Of a stretch of 64,000 bases of DNA, positions 1,925 to 55,692 are shown piece after piece. The position numbers and the translations under genes were made by a program. A model generated the notes under the pieces. That model was not told where the DNA came from and ran no database searches. It was given only the letters and a program-made list of their open reading frames with translations. Every line of letters starts with the position of its first letter. The stretch's first letter is position 1. Origin of the DNA: a bacterium CG_4_10_14_0_2_um_filter_33_32 (GTDB lineage Bacteria > Patescibacteriota > CPR2_A > CG2-30-33-46); assembly GCA_002792735.1 (NCBI GenBank), contig PFOW01000055.1, positions 273 to 64,272 of the forward strand. The letters are read 5' to 3'.

Positions 1925-2570
1925 TATTGTTTACTCTTAGTTCTAATTCTTTATTAAGTACTTCCGAAATTAATATTGGATAATCTTTTGATTCATTCTC
2001 TTTAGTATAGCTTACAATTTTTGCCGATGCTTTATCTCTAATATTTATTAGCCAAGGATCATCAGCATTAATGATCACCAGACCATTTTTAGGTACCGCT
2101 TTAATTGCTTTTTCTATTTCTTTTGCTCTTATCTCTAGTTCATCGGACGATGCTTCGAAATCTAAACTTATATTCGTACAAATAAGGTATTTAGGTTGAA
2201 CAATAGTTAAAAGATAATCCATTTCACCCGGGAAAATTGCTCCCAGCTCCAAGATTAATATTTTAGGAAATTTTTTACTAAATAAAGCAATAGATATTCC
2301 TCTTGATAAGATTTTAAACCATGCCCAAAAGGAAGAATTGCCTGATGGTAGATATAGTACGGCAAGCGGAAGGCCAATTTCAGTATTATAACTTCTGGGA
2401 TTAGCTCGACAATCAAATTTTTTAGATAATTTTTCTTTGATTGCTTCCTTGGTTTCCGTTTTTCCTAAATTGCCAACTATACCAATAATCTGCGGCTTAT
2501 GTCTCCAGATGGTTATCCTTGTTAATATTCTTAGAATCCAAGTTACGATTTTCTTAAATACTTTTTTCAT
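1914..2570 (-). CDS. Mur ligase family protein (MurF-like N-terminal/middle region, short, lacks C-terminal domain)
   Basis: IIGIVGNLGKTETKEAI matches the Mur ligase P-loop (I-G-I-T-G-T-N-GKT-T). NTEIGLPLAVL and LVIINADDP resemble MurF blocks. The ORF ends at 218 aa with no C-terminal ligase domain in any frame. Confidence 0.4.
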   Translation of the reverse strand: MKKVFKKIVTWILRILTRITIWRHKPQIIGIVGNLGKTETKEAIKEKLSKKFDCRANPRSYNTEIGLPLAVLYLPSGNSSFWAWFKILSRGISIALFSKKFPKILILELGAIFPGEMDYLLTIVQPKYLICTNISLDFEASSDELEIRAKEIEKAIKAVPKNGLVIINADDPWLINIRDKASAKIVSYTKENESKDYPILISEVLNKELELRVNNNDL

Positions 2571-3723
2571 TGCTGCTCCTTAAAGTATTGTTCTATTCTA
2601 TCGAACGCCTCATTTATTTTTTCTTCAGTTACCCCAAAAGATATTCGTATATGATTTTCACCTATCGGACCAAAAGCGATTCCAGAAACTGTTGCTACCT
2701 TGGCTTTATACAACAAATCCAAAGCAATATCCCTTGAAGAACATTCCTTTAGGATTTTTGGAAAAACAAAATAAGCCGAATTTGGTCTTTTATATGAAAA
2801 ATAATTTGATAATTTATCAAGACGCCTTAAAATCAAGTCCCTTCTTTTTATAAATTCTCTTTTAAACCTCAAGACCTCTTCCTCTGCTAACTCAAAAGCA
2901 GCTATTGCAGCGTATTGAGAAACTACTGGAGCGCAAGTGACAATAGCATCATGAACTTTAATGATTTCGGCTATATTTTCTTTTGACGAATGAACAAACC
3001 CGATTCTCCAACCAGTCATAGCAAAAGCCTTAGAAAAACTAAAAATTCGAACAACCCTATCTTTAATCTCAGGATTCTGTGCTGGTGAATAATACTCTAT
3101 ATCTTCATATATAAAATCTTTATAAACTTCGTCGGTAATGATAAATAAATTAAACTCTTTAGCTAATTCTTCTAATTCTTGAACTTCTTGTTTGCTGTAA
3201 ATTGTGGATGTTGGATTGTTTGGATTACAAAAAAATATTGCTTTTGTTCTAGGAGTTATCTTTTCTTTAAAATAATTTGTATTTATACTCCAAGACTTTT
3301 CTTCATCCAAAGGAACAGATATTGGTATCCCTCCAGCAACTTTTATAGCCTCAGAATACGATACATAAGTTGGAGAAGGAATTAAAACTTCGTCATCTCT
3401 TTCTAATATAGTAAGGAGGGTGGCAGTTATTCCTTCGATAGCTCCAGCCGTTATAATTATTCAGTGCTAGGGCCATAAATCATATTATCTTTTTTAAGCT
3501 TCTCAGAGATTATCTCTCTAAGCTCTGGCAACCCCGGGCAAAGCGAGTATTTAGAAACAAGATTATTGTCTATAGCCCTCTTAGCAAAATTTTTGATCAC
3601 TTCCGGTGTTTCGAACGATGGTATGCCTTGAGCTAATGAAATAGCATTCGGCACTTTAGAAGCTAGGAGTTCTATTTCTTTGATAATTGATAGTCTGATG
3701 TTTTTTGTTTTACTAATATCCAT
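2567..3723 (-). pseudogene. class I/II (aspartate-family) aminotransferase interrupted by a single frameshift near 3450-3462
   Basis: N-terminal ORF 3457..3723 (…LCPGLPELREIISEKLKKDNMIYGPSTE*) and C-terminal ORF 2567..3310 (NPNNPTSTIY…FSFSKAFAMTGWRIGF…). A third-frame stretch ITAGAIEGITATLLTILERDDEVLIPSPTYVSYSEAIKVAGG is continuous with the C-terminal ORF. The N frame stops at TAA 3457-3459 and the C frame opens immediately after a TGA, i.e. a -1/+2 shift. Confidence 0.6.
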
Positions 3724-3780
3724 TAAGGATATTTTACTCTTTCTAACTGATTTTAAAAAGTGCCCGAAGGGCGCTCATCC

Positions 3781-16219: not shown

Positions 16220-16768
16220 TTAACCCGTGGCAACAGCTAAGTCATTACCTACTTCGTAACGATTTGCGTTATTACCGCCGTCTTTACCGTCTTTATCTTG
16301 AGTTGTTGTGTATTCGGTCGATTCAAAAGCACAGTCAATTTTGTAATGCCCGGCACCATCATGTATAAATCTGTAAAAGCTGGTGACGCTATTCTGTGGG
16401 TCTAATGGCAGGGCGGAAATAGGCGCGCCGGATGATACCGTTGAGAAATCTAACGGTACCCAACCGGTACCTGTATTACTCTGTACAGCCGTACCCGTAG
16501 TTGCCGGGGTAGCAGTTGTAGCATAAACAGTAGTTGTTGCCGCTGTAGCGTAAGTTTCATTCTCAGTAAATGCAGTAAAGGATTTCCCGTCGGTTAAGGC
16601 TAAATTTATGGCTGTTTGGATAGTGCCCATATCCGATATTCTTTGCGAATCACGGCTTTTTTTCATCATTTCAACAGGATTAATAACTAACACAATAACC
16701 GCGGCTAAAATACCGATGATTGCGATAACAACCAAAAGCTCAATTAATGTAAACCCTTTCTTTCCAAT
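16220..16768 (-). CDS. pilA: major type IV pilin (PilA-like); true start upstream of the first canonical start codon
   Basis: An in-frame stop TAA (16783-16781) is followed by ATA CAA AGA AAA ATT GGA AAG AAA GGG TTT ACA TTA ATT GAG, giving (M)QRKIGKKG|FTLIELLVVIAIIGILAAVIV. The first ATG/GTG/TTG (TTG at 16735) lies after the conserved GFTLIE. AGGAGG sits 4 nt before the ATA. The C-terminal half is Thr/Ala-rich. Confidence 0.8.
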   Translation of the reverse strand: MGKKGFTLIELLVVIAIIGILAAVIVLVINPVEMMKKSRDSQRISDMGTIQTAINLALTDGKSFTAFTENETYATAATTTVYATTATPATTGTAVQSNTGTGWVPLDFSTVSSGAPISALPLDPQNSVTSFYRFIHDGAGHYKIDCAFESTEYTTTQDKDGKDGGNNANRYEVGNDLAVATG

Positions 16769-16810
16769 TTTTCTTTGTATTTATCCTCCTAGAAAAATTT
16801 GTTATAAAAA

Positions 16811-21595: not shown

Positions 21596-21790
21596 TTATT
21601 TCTTTTGCAAAGACTCATAACCTTCAATATCAAAGTGTGCCGGCTGAGATTGATAATCTGTTTTATTGCTAGTAATTAATCTTAATTCTTTAGCAACGAA
21701 AAATATCGAAAAAGAAACAAGACCTATCATAAAAAATATTGTTGTTGATAAAAATATAATTCTAAATTTTCGATTTCCTAAACGATTCAT
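21596..21790 (-). CDS. hypothetical small single-TM protein
   Basis: 64-aa ORF between the PilO-like gene and the PAS gene. One hydrophobic helix. It may be spurious. Confidence 0.25.
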   Translation of the reverse strand: MNRLGNRKFRIIFLSTTIFFMIGLVSFSIFFVAKELRLITSNKTDYQSQPAHFDIEGYESLQKK

Positions 21791-22335
21791 TAATCCCTCG
21801 TATAAACTCTAAACTTAATTATTGCAATAGCTGATAAATCTAATGACCCCTCCGAAGAAGCTGTAATATTTATTGATTCTATGGTTGTATAATATTTAAG
21901 ATTTTCTAAACCGGATAAATACTGATTTATAGCGTTAAGCTTTCCCTTTAAATTAACCTCTAACGCTACATTATTTGTGTCGCTTACTATTTTACTCTTA
22001 GAAGCTTCCTTACCTTCTGTAAAACTAATTGTCTGGGTATTATTGGTTTGGGAAGCTAAAGACTCTAAAGAATCCAAAAACGGACTAAGCTTATCTTTTA
22101 ATGGGAATATTTCGGAAAAAGATATCCAACCCGGTTCCAACTGCTTGTATTCTTTCTCTAAAGCACTTTGAGTTGTTGATTGATGATTTAATGCCTCTTT
22201 AAGCGCCTGTTTTTGTTTTATTTCATTTATATCTCTCTTTACAGCTGAATTAAAATAAAACACAACTAACAAAGAAACTGTTATTGCAAATATTATCTTG
22301 ATTAAAGCAAAATTTAAAGATTTATTTTTTCTCAT
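21790..22335 (-). CDS. PilO-like type IV pilus assembly protein
   Basis: 181 aa with an N-terminal TM helix, a coiled-coil segment and a periplasmic C-terminal domain. It overlaps the PilM/N gene end. The call rests on position and architecture. Confidence 0.4.
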   Translation of the reverse strand: MRKNKSLNFALIKIIFAITVSLLVVFYFNSAVKRDINEIKQKQALKEALNHQSTTQSALEKEYKQLEPGWISFSEIFPLKDKLSPFLDSLESLASQTNNTQTISFTEGKEASKSKIVSDTNNVALEVNLKGKLNAINQYLSGLENLKYYTTIESINITASSEGSLDLSAIAIIKFRVYTRD

Positions 22336-23755
22336 TTTTTCCTGTCTTCAAGGTAATCTTAAAAATTGTATTCTCTTTCTGTGAAATAGATGATAGAGGC
22401 AAATCAATCTCAGAAAAATAAGAAGCTTTTTCAAGATTATCCTTATATTCTAAAACACCCTCTCTTTTGGCTGATATTCCTTCAATAATCAGATTGCTTT
22501 TTGCTGCATCAAATGAAATCTTGGTTAGTCTAACACTGCCTGGTAAATTTCCTAAAGCCACTGAGAATTTTTTTTCAATCTCCTGCTTTGAAGATTCTAA
22601 TTCTTTCATTCTTTTTACTTGATTATTAAAATCCTTTGATTTTTCTTCTAGGCCCTTATAGGCAGGGTTTGTCTTTGTTGCGTTTATTGAAATTCTATTA
22701 TCTAAATCTGCCCTGAATTGATTGAGAAAAAATGCAAAACCTAAAAAAAGCAATAAAATAATAATTACTAAAACGCTAAAAATATTACCAATGGCGTTAT
22801 AAATAAGGAAGCTTTTTTCTTTCTCATACTCCTCTTTAACACCTAAGGGCAAAAGACTAATCTCCGTATCATCTTGCCTGGCCTTAATCCCCCTAAGAGA
22901 AGCTCCTGATAAGCTGAGATTATCAATATCCTTAAGTTCTGGTTTTCTTTCAACTATCTTGATCTTTGCAGACAACTTATTTTCTAATAAACTAATAATT
23001 TTTTTAGCTTCGGAACTACTATCAATATCAAAATGAAAAGAATCCAATATTAACCCCTTTTTATCGGATGTATAAAAATTTAATACTTTAATAATTTCCA
23101 AAACTATATCTTGCAAATAGTTATTAGATTTAATAATCTTACTGCTTTCTACAAATCTTAAGCCTTTCTTTTCATAAACATACAAAGCAAGCTCGCAGTC
23201 ACGGTATATCACTCCTACAAAAGTCTCCTGCTTATCAAGGGCTGTTCTTAAATGAGAAGAAGTGTAAGTCTCAAAAGCATAGGAAATGACTTTTGCTTTT
23301 GTAAATATCCCAACTAATTTGTTTATTAAAAATTTGGAAGAAGTGGATATTAAATATTCTTTTTTATTTCTTTCTCCTCTAACATTCGGTATCTCTTGCC
23401 AATGGATGAGGCTATCCGACTTATCAAAAGGAACATCTAACTCCACGTTTAATTCAATAGCTGATGAAAGTTCTTCCTGCGGAGTGTTTATAGGCACATA
23501 TTCACTGCTGATATAAGATAAATTATCAGGAAAAGTTACAATAATTTCTGATTTTTTAAAAAATGATCTATTTTTCTTATATATAATATTAAGGTTTTTC
23601 TCTAAATTGCTTATGTCTTCATCGTTATTAAAATCATTTATTTTGCATGGATATTTTAAAACATTAGAAAAAATAATAGATTTTTTTCTATTTTCTTTAA
23701 TATTTTGTACGTAAATATTTTCGCCGGTTATTTGTATACCAGTAGCGTACTTCAA
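22322..23755 (-). CDS. PilM-PilN fusion (actin-like PilM domain, TM helix, PilN-like C-terminus)
   Basis: 477 aa. The N-terminal ~320 aa resemble PilM/FtsA-like actin-fold proteins. A TM helix (FSVLVIIILLLFLGFAFFL) is followed by a coiled-coil and periplasmic tail, as in PilN. Confidence 0.55.
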   Translation of the reverse strand: MKYATGIQITGENIYVQNIKENRKKSIIFSNVLKYPCKINDFNNDEDISNLEKNLNIIYKKNRSFFKKSEIIVTFPDNLSYISSEYVPINTPQEELSSAIELNVELDVPFDKSDSLIHWQEIPNVRGERNKKEYLISTSSKFLINKLVGIFTKAKVISYAFETYTSSHLRTALDKQETFVGVIYRDCELALYVYEKKGLRFVESSKIIKSNNYLQDIVLEIIKVLNFYTSDKKGLILDSFHFDIDSSSEAKKIISLLENKLSAKIKIVERKPELKDIDNLSLSGASLRGIKARQDDTEISLLPLGVKEEYEKEKSFLIYNAIGNIFSVLVIIILLLFLGFAFFLNQFRADLDNRISINATKTNPAYKGLEEKSKDFNNQVKRMKELESSKQEIEKKFSVALGNLPGSVRLTKISFDAAKSNLIIEGISAKREGVLEYKDNLEKASYFSEIDLPLSSISQKENTIFKITLKTGKNEKK

Positions 23756-23756
23756 A

Positions 23757-24158
23757 TTATGGAACCTCCTCTTCTTGCCAACTGTCTTGAACTACCTTTC
23801 CATCATTATCAACTGAAACTATAACTTTTATTCTTTTTTTTACGTCATCAACTTGGCTTGAAGAAATTATGGTTGTTTTCCCTGATATTGGCTGATTGCG
23901 CTCAACTGTAATTGTAGCAGAACCTCCAGAAAGCTGCAAAACATAACCAGAGCTCTGAAAGTTCTTATTTCTGGTTACCATTACTAAACCATCTCTCGCC
24001 CCTGCTTCTGCCATAGAAAGAGCTTGTCTGGCCTTTCTATCATTATTGCTTATATTCAGCTCACCAAAAGAAACTGCACCCAAGGTTAAACCTATAACTA
24101 ATAATATACTAGTAACCACTATCGTTGTTATAAGCAATGCTGACCCTTTATTATCCAT
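23757..24158 (-). CDS. PilX-like minor pilin/pilus assembly protein
   Basis: N-terminus MDNKGSALLITTIVVTSILLVIGLTLGAVSFGE resembles PilX-type N-termini (GSALIvaLi.l.vLtllgvs). Confidence 0.35.
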   Translation of the reverse strand: MDNKGSALLITTIVVTSILLVIGLTLGAVSFGELNISNNDRKARQALSMAEAGARDGLVMVTRNKNFQSSGYVLQLSGGSATITVERNQPISGKTTIISSSQVDDVKKRIKVIVSVDNDGKVVQDSWQEEEVP

Positions 24159-24168
24159 AAATCTATTC

Positions 24169-24708
24169 CTATTTAAGAGAAACTGTTGTTTGGTAATCCT
24201 GAAAAAGAATAATTTCTGTTCCTTTTTTATACTCTATACGAAAATTGATTTGAACTGTGGGCTTTGAACCGGTATTTTTTACCAATCTAAAGTAAGGAAA
24301 ATCACTACCTGTGTTTCTTTTTTTAAAAGATACCGCTTTTGTTGTTAGCTCAGTAGTCTCTAATAAATTGGCGCCTTCATAAATCTTAATAGTGAGAACA
24401 CCCGAATTTATCTCATAAACAGTATCTTTGCCATCGCTCATATGAAGCGATAAAGAATCTGATGTAGGAGAACCTTCGGTGGGCTGATTAACGCTTTCTG
24501 CCTTACCTATGTCCTGATTTAATTTTTCCAGAATAAAACGGCCATTCTGCTGAATTTCAGTAGAAGCAGAGCTTCTATTAGATGCCTTTAGAACCGGATA
24601 AACCATACTCACAACAGCGATTGTAACAAAACCCAAAATAGCTACGTATATTACAAGCTCAATTAAAGTTACCCCTCGTTCCATTGTTTCATTGTTCCAT
24701 TGTTTCAT
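24169..24708 (-). CDS. type IV pseudopilin (PilV/PilW-like)
   Basis: …MERG|VTLIELVIYVAILGFVTIAVV is a canonical prepilin cleavage/methylation motif. Confidence 0.75.
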   Translation of the reverse strand: MKQWNNETMERGVTLIELVIYVAILGFVTIAVVSMVYPVLKASNRSSASTEIQQNGRFILEKLNQDIGKAESVNQPTEGSPTSDSLSLHMSDGKDTVYEINSGVLTIKIYEGANLLETTELTTKAVSFKKRNTGSDFPYFRLVKNTGSKPTVQINFRIEYKKGTEIILFQDYQTTVSLK

Positions 24709-41826: not shown

Positions 41827-42954
41827 CTATTTTCTACCGCAAACCGGCCAAGCGCCATATCCTTGTATAGAAATTTTCCAAGCTGTTGTATAAATCTGAG
41901 CTTTTGCATCATAAATACTTGCACCGGCATAACCTGCGCCGGCAGATGCGCCTGCCCAAGTAGAGGGAAGGTATTGAAATAAACCATAGAATCTTCCACC
42001 GCCTCCAACAGAATTTGGATTGCCTCCACTTTCACAAGTCATCATTCTTTGCATTTTACCCGCATCAACTCCGTATTTTAATGCGGCATCATTTATCCAT
42101 TCACCAAATGCGCCATCGGCATAAGTGAATTTCGGTTTTCTGCCCTTAATGACAATTTGTGATACAGGTTCCTTTATAATTTCTGTTGAAAGTATTTCTT
42201 TGCTTTTTTCAGTTCCGTTTTCAATTACTTTCTTAAAAGTGATTTTCTTTTTACCAACCTCGCCTCTTCTCTCTATCTTTGATTCGCCCTCTAAAAAATT
42301 AGCGTCATCTTTATACTGTATAGCAAAAGGAATTTCGTAAGTTTCCGAAGATTCATCTTTTGAAATTCTTATAATATTTATCTCTAAACCTTCTGTAAGC
42401 GGCGTATTAAGAGCCGGCTCAACTCTATCAAACTCTCCTAAGGCAATATTTTCCGAATAAATTAAATCCGAAACTTTTTTAAGTCTTGTATGAATCTCTC
42501 TTAATTTACCGTCTACTTGAATATTTATCGTATTAGCTCTATTTATATATATTTTTAACCCAGGCACAACATCATCCAAAGGATCAGCGATTGAAACCTC
42601 ATCATTAGCGTATAAATTAATAGATAGATCTTTTAAAATTTCAAAAACCGATAAGTAAGCACTTCTGCCAATTATTATTTTATCGCCATCAATAATAGTC
42701 ACTGGTCTTGCTTTATAGATAAAAACCTCGGTTGTACCTTCATTAAGATTAGTATCTAGGCCAGGATCTACTAAATCATTCTTTTCAAAAGAAATACCCT
42801 GAGATTCCAATGCCTCTTTTAAAGTATTTTTGGTGGTAGTAAATTTGGCTTGATCGTTTTCTGTAGTTAAACTTATGACTTTGACTGGCTCTAAAGAACC
42901 AGATGCAAATGCAGTAATATTCGGTAGAATATATGCATTTGATGCAAAAGACAA
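41827..42954 (-). CDS. RpfB-like secreted protein: DUF348 - G5 - resuscitation-promoting-factor (lysozyme-like transglycosylase) domain; N-terminus probably extends upstream to a non-canonical start (to ~43065)
   Basis: C-terminal MTCESGGNPNSVGGGGRFYGLFQYLPSTWAG…AWPVCGRK (Rpf domain) with DUF348/G5-like middle. From the TTG start the protein lacks a signal peptide. The in-frame upstream sequence encodes …KKVRNLKNRISSKIKAVILVFSILSFASNA, an open frame back to ATA 43065-43063 preceded by GGAGG + 5 nt. Confidence 0.75.
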   Translation of the reverse strand: MSFASNAYILPNITAFASGSLEPVKVISLTTENDQAKFTTTKNTLKEALESQGISFEKNDLVDPGLDTNLNEGTTEVFIYKARPVTIIDGDKIIIGRSAYLSVFEILKDLSINLYANDEVSIADPLDDVVPGLKIYINRANTINIQVDGKLREIHTRLKKVSDLIYSENIALGEFDRVEPALNTPLTEGLEINIIRISKDESSETYEIPFAIQYKDDANFLEGESKIERRGEVGKKKITFKKVIENGTEKSKEILSTEIIKEPVSQIVIKGRKPKFTYADGAFGEWINDAALKYGVDAGKMQRMMTCESGGNPNSVGGGGRFYGLFQYLPSTWAGASAGAGYAGASIYDAKAQIYTTAWKISIQGYGAWPVCGRK

Positions 42955-43187
42955 AATGCTAAAAACTAATATAACTGCCTTTATTTTTGAAGATATTCTG
43001 TTTTTTAAATTTCTTACTTTTTTGCCAAAAGAATTAACTTTTGGCCCTAACTGGTGCGTTTCTATAAAAACCTCCGGGTTAAATCGATGTAGAATTTTTG
43101 ATTATCAAGACTTTTGTTTTCGCCCTTTGGTTTTGTTTTTGTTTTTAAAATTTATGTTTTTTGTTTTATTTGAAATTATAGAAAAGC

Positions 43188-55680: not shown

Positions 55681-55692
55681 TATAAATAATAT

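Follow-up and report, generated by a model that had tools for sequence, protein, structure and literature searches.

The gene for the major type IV pilin in a 64,000-nucleotide stretch of DNA from an uncultured patescibacterium of groundwater (the window, to which all positions refer) has ATA at the codon where its relatives start translation with ATG. Comparison with conspecific and more distant loci identifies this ATA as a real allele, the commonest one in the natural population, which is derived from an ancestral ATG. We consider it probable that the allele is a translational knock-down of the major pilin, which would yield the same protein at a lower rate. The first-pass annotation of the window had claimed that the gene must initiate at a non-canonical codon, either ATA or ATT. 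This holds insofar as the ATA allele offers no canonical option, but "must" is too strong a word for a segregating ATG>ATA mutation that might also be a null allele.

Start region of the pilin gene

On the minus strand, read 5' to 3', the Shine–Dalgarno (SD) sequence AGGAGG (16790–16785) is followed by A, by an in-frame TAA (16783–16781) that closes the frame directly upstream, and by ATA (16780–16778), the inferred start codon. The next codons are CAA AGA AAA, ATT (16768–16766) and GGA AAG AAA GGG, the last of which encodes Gly-1 (16756–16754). Past the cleavage site, TTT (Phe+1, 16753–16751), ACA TTA ATT and GAG (Glu+5, 16741–16739) encode the mature N-terminus FTLIE (16753–16739, within the Pfam N_methyl match), and CTT then precedes TTG (16735–16733), the first canonical start. 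Between the in-frame TAA and this TTG, the pilin frame contains no ATG, GTG or TTG. Counted from ATA, the coding sequence comprises 186 codons plus stop (16780–16220, minus strand; assigned by homologs and Pfam) and begins with the nine-residue prepilin leader (M)QRKIGKKG (16780–16754). Re-reading the sequence confirmed the reported positions of the SD, the TAA, the ATA and the prepilin signature (KKG followed by FTLIELL), as well as the location of TTG past the cleavage site.

The encoded N-terminus, (I/M)QRKIGKKG followed by FTLIELLVVIAIIGILAAV, presents a prepilin leader, cleavage site and Glu+5 in textbook form. With Met in first position, it has the features of a class III signal peptide: a basic leader, Gly-1, Phe+1, Glu+5 and a hydrophobic helix of about 20 residues. 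The leader-containing protein matches Pfam N_methyl (PF07963) at residues 7–29 with 33.9 bits (cut-off 21.2), whereas a Pfam search with the 171-residue protein started at TTG gives no match. Homologs of the pilin number 1878, and PF07963 is present in 119 of the best 120.

Most gene callers nevertheless choose TTG, and OIP22211.1 as well as the calls from JGI, Logan and ENA give the 171-residue product. The 186-residue product from ATA is annotated in at least one NCBI record of a sister genome (PFLT01000043.1, locus L009). Apart from being the first canonical start and the one called by most pipelines, TTG has little to recommend it: it has no SD, its product lacks the leader, the cleavage site, Gly-1, Phe+1 and Glu+5 and thus the motif of nearly all of the best homologs, and ATG alleles of the same gene begin 15 codons upstream. 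We regard a true start at this codon as very improbable. The ATT at 16768–16766, the second candidate of the first-pass annotation, is near-cognate, in frame and upstream of the cleavage site, and it would give the short leader MGKKG. However, its distance from the SD is 16 nt, a separate SD for this codon is absent, a 67%-identical ortholog (L008) has TTA instead, and the ATG alleles all place the start at 16780. Initiation at ATT is thus unsupported and improbable, if less so than at TTG.

The position of ATA is borne out by relatives. Sister strains (L007 and L010–L018) and two outgroup species (L008 and L200) have ATG at exactly this codon, and the GATAA spacer of the window's pilin is the same in all of them. 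In L008, the initiation region reads AGGAGGATAA-ATG and the leader, MKKQLQKKG, is also nine residues long; in L200, whose pilin is 54% identical, it reads GGAGGTGGATAA-ATG. A member of the pilin's protein cluster (P0001; 186 aa, MQRKIGKKG...) is encoded on its sister contig by DNA that reads AGGAGGATAA-ATG. The same AGGAGGATAA+ATG opens pilB, 1.3 kb downstream, where the 13-mer AGGAGGATAAATG (15482–15470, minus strand) is identical to the ancestral pilin initiation region and has the 4-nt spacing in working use. Together, the ATG of the relatives and the 13-mer shared with pilB establish that ATA stands where translation ancestrally started, at a distance from the SD that the locus uses elsewhere. 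Since sister strains and both outgroups have ATG at this codon, ATA is, on this comparison, the derived state, produced by a G>A transition at 16778.

Conservation of the pilin ATA across species is absent among the orthologs compared; ATA occurs in a single species, in which it is polymorphic. The first-pass annotation had proposed to look among orthologs for a conserved ATA or ATT or its replacement by ATG, and had named a canonical start with the same leader as a refutation. A canonical ATG with the same leader is what we found, and a conserved ATA has to be given up, but the ATA of the window's allele is not removed by this result; rather, its meaning shifts to that of a polymorphism.

The gene belongs to a type IV pilus locus. 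Directly downstream on the minus strand are genes for a PilB-type assembly ATPase (15472–13766; Pfam T2SSE and MshEN), a PilC-type platform protein (13764–12553; Pfam T2SSF) and N_methyl minor pilins, among them one with a normal ATG start (12542–12024). A hairpin, CCCCGAT-ATTG-ATCGGGG followed by TTTT (16190–16173, minus strand), is the likely pilin terminator as judged from sequence and folding; it was not listed by a consensus scan. Between pilin and pilB lies a gene for a conserved 199-residue multi-pass membrane protein (16094–15495, minus strand), which has no Pfam match and might be a divergent pilus component. L200 has a 204-residue gene in its place. A receiver-domain response regulator (17209–16811, minus strand) is situated just upstream of the pilin, with its stop 30 nt from the pilin start, and PAS and histidine-kinase genes follow beyond it. 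PilM/N/O-like and PilX_N genes occupy 21790–24708, and a 2404-residue open reading frame (33271–26057, minus strand) adjoins a second pilus gene cluster. A search of the pilin neighbourhood for a prepilin peptidase (PilD) gave no peptidase A24 match.

Three haplotypes in a natural population

For comparison with the window, we took 38 conspecific loci from metagenome-assembled genomes (MAGs) in NCBI, metagenomes in JGI, and the assemblies of ENA and, for many runs, of Logan. Over the stretch that each locus covers (up to 10 kb), its identity to the window is no less than 99.8%. They stem from "bacterium CG2_30_33_46" and its sister MAGs at Crystal Geyser, the relatives of which carry the label Patescibacteria or Candidatus Saccharibacteria. 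The truncated pilin product has an exact match in 81 blocks of a public collection. Allele counts are based on exact-protein look-ups, as exact-pattern scans for the initiation region gave no match in collections of metagenome and genome contigs that evidently do not include these loci. Many of the 38 contigs are re-assemblies of overlapping samples, and the loci were fetched by distinct pilin protein, so that pilin-linked variation is over-sampled.

AGGAGG with ATA is found in identical form in 28 of the 38 loci, across differing samples and pipelines, and the remaining 10 have G at 16778 and hence ATG. When all variant sites are tabulated, a second polymorphism appears 8 nt away, inside the SD, where the G of the window at 16786 is replaced by A to give AGGAAG. 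The two sites define three haplotypes: H1 (AGGAGG + ATA, 28 loci), H2 (AGGAAG + ATG, five loci) and H3 (AGGAGG + ATG, three loci), the last of which agrees with the outgroup at both sites. Two Logan contigs (L014 and L015) have ATG and do not cover the SD. Both start at 16785, one base past the polymorphic SD position, as fits branching of the assembly graph at that point; in those samples, the two SD alleles may occur side by side and so break the graph. Across the 14 samples of the JGI series Ga0100388-401, the consensus haplotype is H1 in 12, while H2 and H3 account for one sample each.

A sequencing or assembly error with G as the true base had been named at the outset as a possible refutation. 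Nothing speaks for it except the rarity of ATA starts; against it, the same ATA recurs in all 28 loci from independent samples, runs and assemblers, and the same pipelines resolve ATG alleles in other samples. We regard an error as ruled out for practical purposes. By these counts, ATA is an established allele and the commonest in the natural population.

With H3 as the ancestor, the haplotypes form the network H1–H3–H2, which points to two independent changes, each of which would weaken initiation. Both changes together (AGGAAG + ATA) are found in none of the loci examined; as the sites are so close, this may be plain linkage. V115L (position 16438, codon 115 of the pilin on the minus strand) occurs on all three haplotypes, but we rejected a case for recombination or recurrent mutation built on it, since metagenome consensus contigs may be strain chimeras. 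The density of variable sites in the 13-nt initiation region (2 of about 27, raw Poisson about 0.001) is likewise untrustworthy as a test because pilin-linked variation is over-sampled. Comparison of cluster sizes between neighbouring genes is imperfect, too: the response-regulator cluster has a single member although an A4T allele exists. As for repeat-mediated phase variation, the region contains no homopolymer, short repeat or invertible element, and the alleles differ by two single substitutions in non-repetitive sequence.

With a generic anti-SD, AGGAGG is predicted to form a duplex of −10.2 kcal/mol and AGGAAG one of −4.2 kcal/mol. In the window, where a 4-nt spacer separates the SD from the start codon, the SD is predicted to be unpaired with a probability of 0.82 and the start codon with one of 0.88; both elements are mostly unpaired in all haplotypes (0.73–0.88), and predicted folding reveals no difference of note in mRNA structure between the three. 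Since the predicted structure is the same, the effects of the two changes should be direct, via the SD duplex in H2 and via codon–anticodon pairing in H1.

The same folding bears on the idea that AUA is turned back into AUG in the transcript, A-to-I editing being one way, in which case the edited base would be read as G. The target of TadA is UACG, and the local context U-A-C provides three of these four bases; the fourth is A, not G, and predicted folding places the codon in A-rich, unpaired sequence instead of an anticodon-like hairpin loop. We know of no precedent for start-codon editing and, given the wrong context and the position outside a loop, rejected it as highly unlikely.

All 28 ATA loci have a perfect SD and an intact open reading frame, in which the only changes are the missense substitutions E73K, E75K, T97A and V115L. 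Pseudogene lesions (frameshift, nonsense or SD loss) are absent from these 28 loci, a weak test because divergence at the locus is at most 0.2%, so that missing secondary disabling mutations say little. Polymorphism across the locus looks nearly neutral (about 23 nonsynonymous versus 9 synonymous sites). In the neighbouring sensor genes (21531–17276, minus strand), loss-of-function alleles segregate: those of the PAS protein are K144* and the loss of 1 nt at codon 328, and those of the histidine kinase are R540* and C-terminal indels (L001, L007, L023, L030 and L035). Purifying selection has therefore yet to clean up the population, and against such a background the intact reading frame of the ATA alleles is weak evidence for function.

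These observations leave room for the main rival of the knock-down reading, namely that ATG>ATA effectively abolishes the pilin, that most cells of the population are devoid of this type of pilus, and that the loss is favoured (e.g., as an escape from phage that depend on the pilus) or has spread by drift or hitch-hiking, with the reading frame yet to decay. Divergence in the population is too low to reveal decay, the nonsense and frameshift changes that segregate in the PAS and histidine-kinase genes next to the pilin are in keeping with it, and the second allele, AGGAAG, also weakens initiation, which fits pressure against the pilus. On the other hand, ATA is the consensus in most samples, and every one of the ATA loci has kept its SD. 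We consider such a null allele possible, although we rank it below a knock-down; further evidence on both sides comes from start-codon usage, as described below.

A conserved AT(A/T) start in an rpf-like gene

We scanned the window, which holds about 56 genes, for near-cognate codons behind a strong SD and upstream of the first canonical start. A strong SD with ATA in this arrangement occurs four times, and two of the matches are spurious, one (ATA at 3322) because it falls within an aminotransferase gene with a frameshift, the other (ATA at 55692) because a normal ATG follows four codons on. The aminotransferase (class I/II; 3774–2567, minus strand) is split into two frames, 3457–3774 and 2567–3460, a frameshift that reflects either a pseudogene or a sequence error. 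Besides the pilin, one gene has a convincing ATA start, an rpf-like gene at 43065–41827 on the minus strand. By itself, the motif GGAGG-N4-6-ATA is unenriched, with 8 occurrences in the window versus 4.9 ± 2.2 expected, so its counts are no proof and the signal rests on context, i.e., the frame, the upstream stop and the conserved N-terminus. A scan for further SD+ATA genes had been suggested by the first-pass annotation.

The rpf-like gene encodes a secreted muralytic protein with DUF348, G5 and transglycosylase domains (Pfam). Its initiation region (43075–43063, minus strand) consists of GGAGG (43075–43071), TTTTT and ATA (43065–43063), and the frame opens past an in-frame TGA TAA (43107–43102). 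A basic n-region and a hydrophobic anchor (KKVRNLKNRISSKIKAVILVFSILSFASNAYIL) precede the first canonical start, TTG at 42954, which lies inside the anchor. We read this region in 16 orthologs (L038–L040, L042, L048–L054, L058, L063, L066, L075 and L129), and AT(A/T) is kept in all 16, down to about 30% identity, with in-frame stops upstream. The region reads GGAGG-T6-ATA in L038 (56% identity; in-frame stop seven codons upstream), GGAGG-T5-ATT in L040 (60%; seven codons) and in L039 (50%; four codons), and GGAGG-TGTTT-ATT in L042 (37%), where the stop four codons upstream is a TAG overlapping the SD. In 11 Saccharimonadia orthologs, an invariant ATT follows a conserved GAGAGAC-N2-4, and the next codon is TTA, TTG or CTG.

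Because AT(A/T) is kept across these orthologs, initiation at AUA or AUU appears to work in this lineage. On this comparative evidence, the rpf-like gene shows that AUH starts are functional and maintained, in the manner of infC and pcnB; it is not proof for the ATA of the pilin. Annotation has missed the start: in the species' own cluster of 30 members, 15 of the 15 listed are called at 375 residues from the internal TTG, including four named by NCBI, and many orthologs elsewhere are truncated likewise.

Several further observations concern this gene. Upstream of it (about 43358–43066, minus strand, and the upstream regions of L048–L129) we found a conserved TTGACA...TATAAT promoter and an A-rich leader, the end of which is nearly invariant in Saccharimonadia (GTCyCTT...TTAACG.GAGAGAC-N2-4-ATT). 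A c-di-AMP (ydaO) or other riboswitch was rejected, as neither the window nor 10 ortholog loci gave an Rfam match at gathering or permissive thresholds. A hairpin between GTCyCTT and GAGAGAC beside the ATT of the Saccharimonadia leaders was rejected as well; its arms are nearly invariant, and covariation support is absent. The protein itself (42954–41827, minus strand) is much more variable than its neighbours, with 30 distinct variants in its 90% cluster compared with 1–13 for the adjacent pilus genes.

Pilin output and comparison with known systems

In the knock-down reading, the intact, unpaired AGGAGG 4 nt upstream would still position the 30S subunit on the ATA allele. The initiator tRNA most likely pairs with AUA via two of three bases, with a mismatch at the third position. 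The product would be a normal prepilin, fMet-QRKIGKKG followed by FTLIELL, made at a reduced rate, and prepilin peptidase would then trim the leader after Gly-1. H2 may represent a second, independent down-allele with a milder effect, coexisting with the ancestral AGGAGG + ATG.

How far the rate would fall can be gauged from other bacteria. In E. coli, AUA, AUU, AUC and CUG starts reach 1–2% of AUG, and 0.02–3% in other constructs (10.1101/063800). In S. aureus, AUA starts at infC, ccpN and citZ have been mapped by ribosome profiling, all behind strong or extended SDs, and AUA reporters give about 10% of the AUG level, with a maximum of 30% (PMC13009471). By analogy, the pilin AUA might work at about 10–30% of AUG, as behind the strong SDs of S. 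aureus, or at 0.02–3%, as in E. coli. The E. coli range favours a null allele, as does the dispensability of one of the two pilus types of TM7x (PMC11623550). The S. aureus range, from another low-GC bacterium, and the persistence of AUH starts under selection in the lineage argue against it.

We infer that AUA is used in the pilin with reduced efficiency, and that the population tolerates a lowered pilin output or is favoured by it. As the major pilin is usually made in very large amounts, function might be lost with a 3- to 100-fold drop. Dominance of the weak allele might reflect savings in cost, evasion of enemies that depend on the pilus, a second pilus system that makes this one redundant, or drift.

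A wider reading, which we put forward only as a speculation, is that a Saccharimonadia-related branch of the Patescibacteria routinely uses AUA and AUU behind a strong SD as a low-gear tier of translation, with gene callers systematically clipping N-termini. The pilin initiation region would then be under selection in the wild, with two alleles dialling down pili, perhaps under phage or host pressure. In the window, two of about 56 genes are affected in this way, as are 15 of the 15 listed rpf-like entries.

Type IV pili are central to host-cell attachment and to the life of ultrasmall episymbionts (PMC9894109, PMC11623550), and the weak-start, weak-SD and ancestral strong alleles form a natural series for asking how much pilin such cells need. 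Most pipelines mis-call both genes, the pilin as a leaderless protein of 171 residues and the rpf-like protein without its signal anchor, so that export signals will be lost from annotation wherever ATA or ATT starts occur. With its start conserved across Saccharimonadia-like lineages, the rpf-like gene offers a new case in which weak-start regulation can be tested. Near-cognate starts (infC, pcnB and the S. aureus set), co-variation of start codon and SD among close relatives, and at least one record annotating the pilin ATA are already known. What is new is the class of gene, a major pilin, together with the series of three alleles in the wild and the AT(A/T) start of the rpf-like gene, which is deeply conserved and has escaped annotation.

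The closest parallel is provided by the AUA starts of S. aureus infC, ccpN and citZ, which also combine low GC, a strong SD close by and an AUA that lowers output; the citZ AUA is limited to one strain lineage and thus is also an ATG/ATA polymorphism within a species (PMC13009471). The S. aureus sites have been profiled and measured with reporters, whereas the pilin ATA is known from its sequence. The S. aureus genes encode regulators and enzymes and have strong or extended SDs, whereas the gene described here encodes a major structural pilin and has an SD with a 6-nt core, at which a second, SD-weakening allele also segregates.

The AUU starts of E. coli infC and pcnB, which are cited in 10.1101/063800, are a further parallel, in which a near-cognate AUH start limits translation, as it probably does here; the weak start of the rpf-like gene resembles them in being conserved across species. 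The pilin ATA differs from them in being a recent, derived and unconserved allele, and feedback by IF3 is not implied.

Belinky et al. (PMC5622118) described start-codon switches with compensatory SD changes in prokaryotes, and as in our population, start codon and SD co-vary within closely related genomes. Their switches are among AUG, GUG and UUG, with compensation towards stronger SDs. In the pilin, the combinations are ATA with a strong SD, ATG with a strong SD and ATG with a weak SD, which look like two separate down-mutations of an ancestor strong in both elements and do not look like compensation.

Finally, pilE and pilC of Neisseria are subject to phase or antigenic variation, and the heterogeneous expression of type IV pilins that results within one population has a possible counterpart here. 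In place of the repeat tracts, inversions or silent cassettes of such systems, the pilin alleles described here differ by two plain point substitutions.
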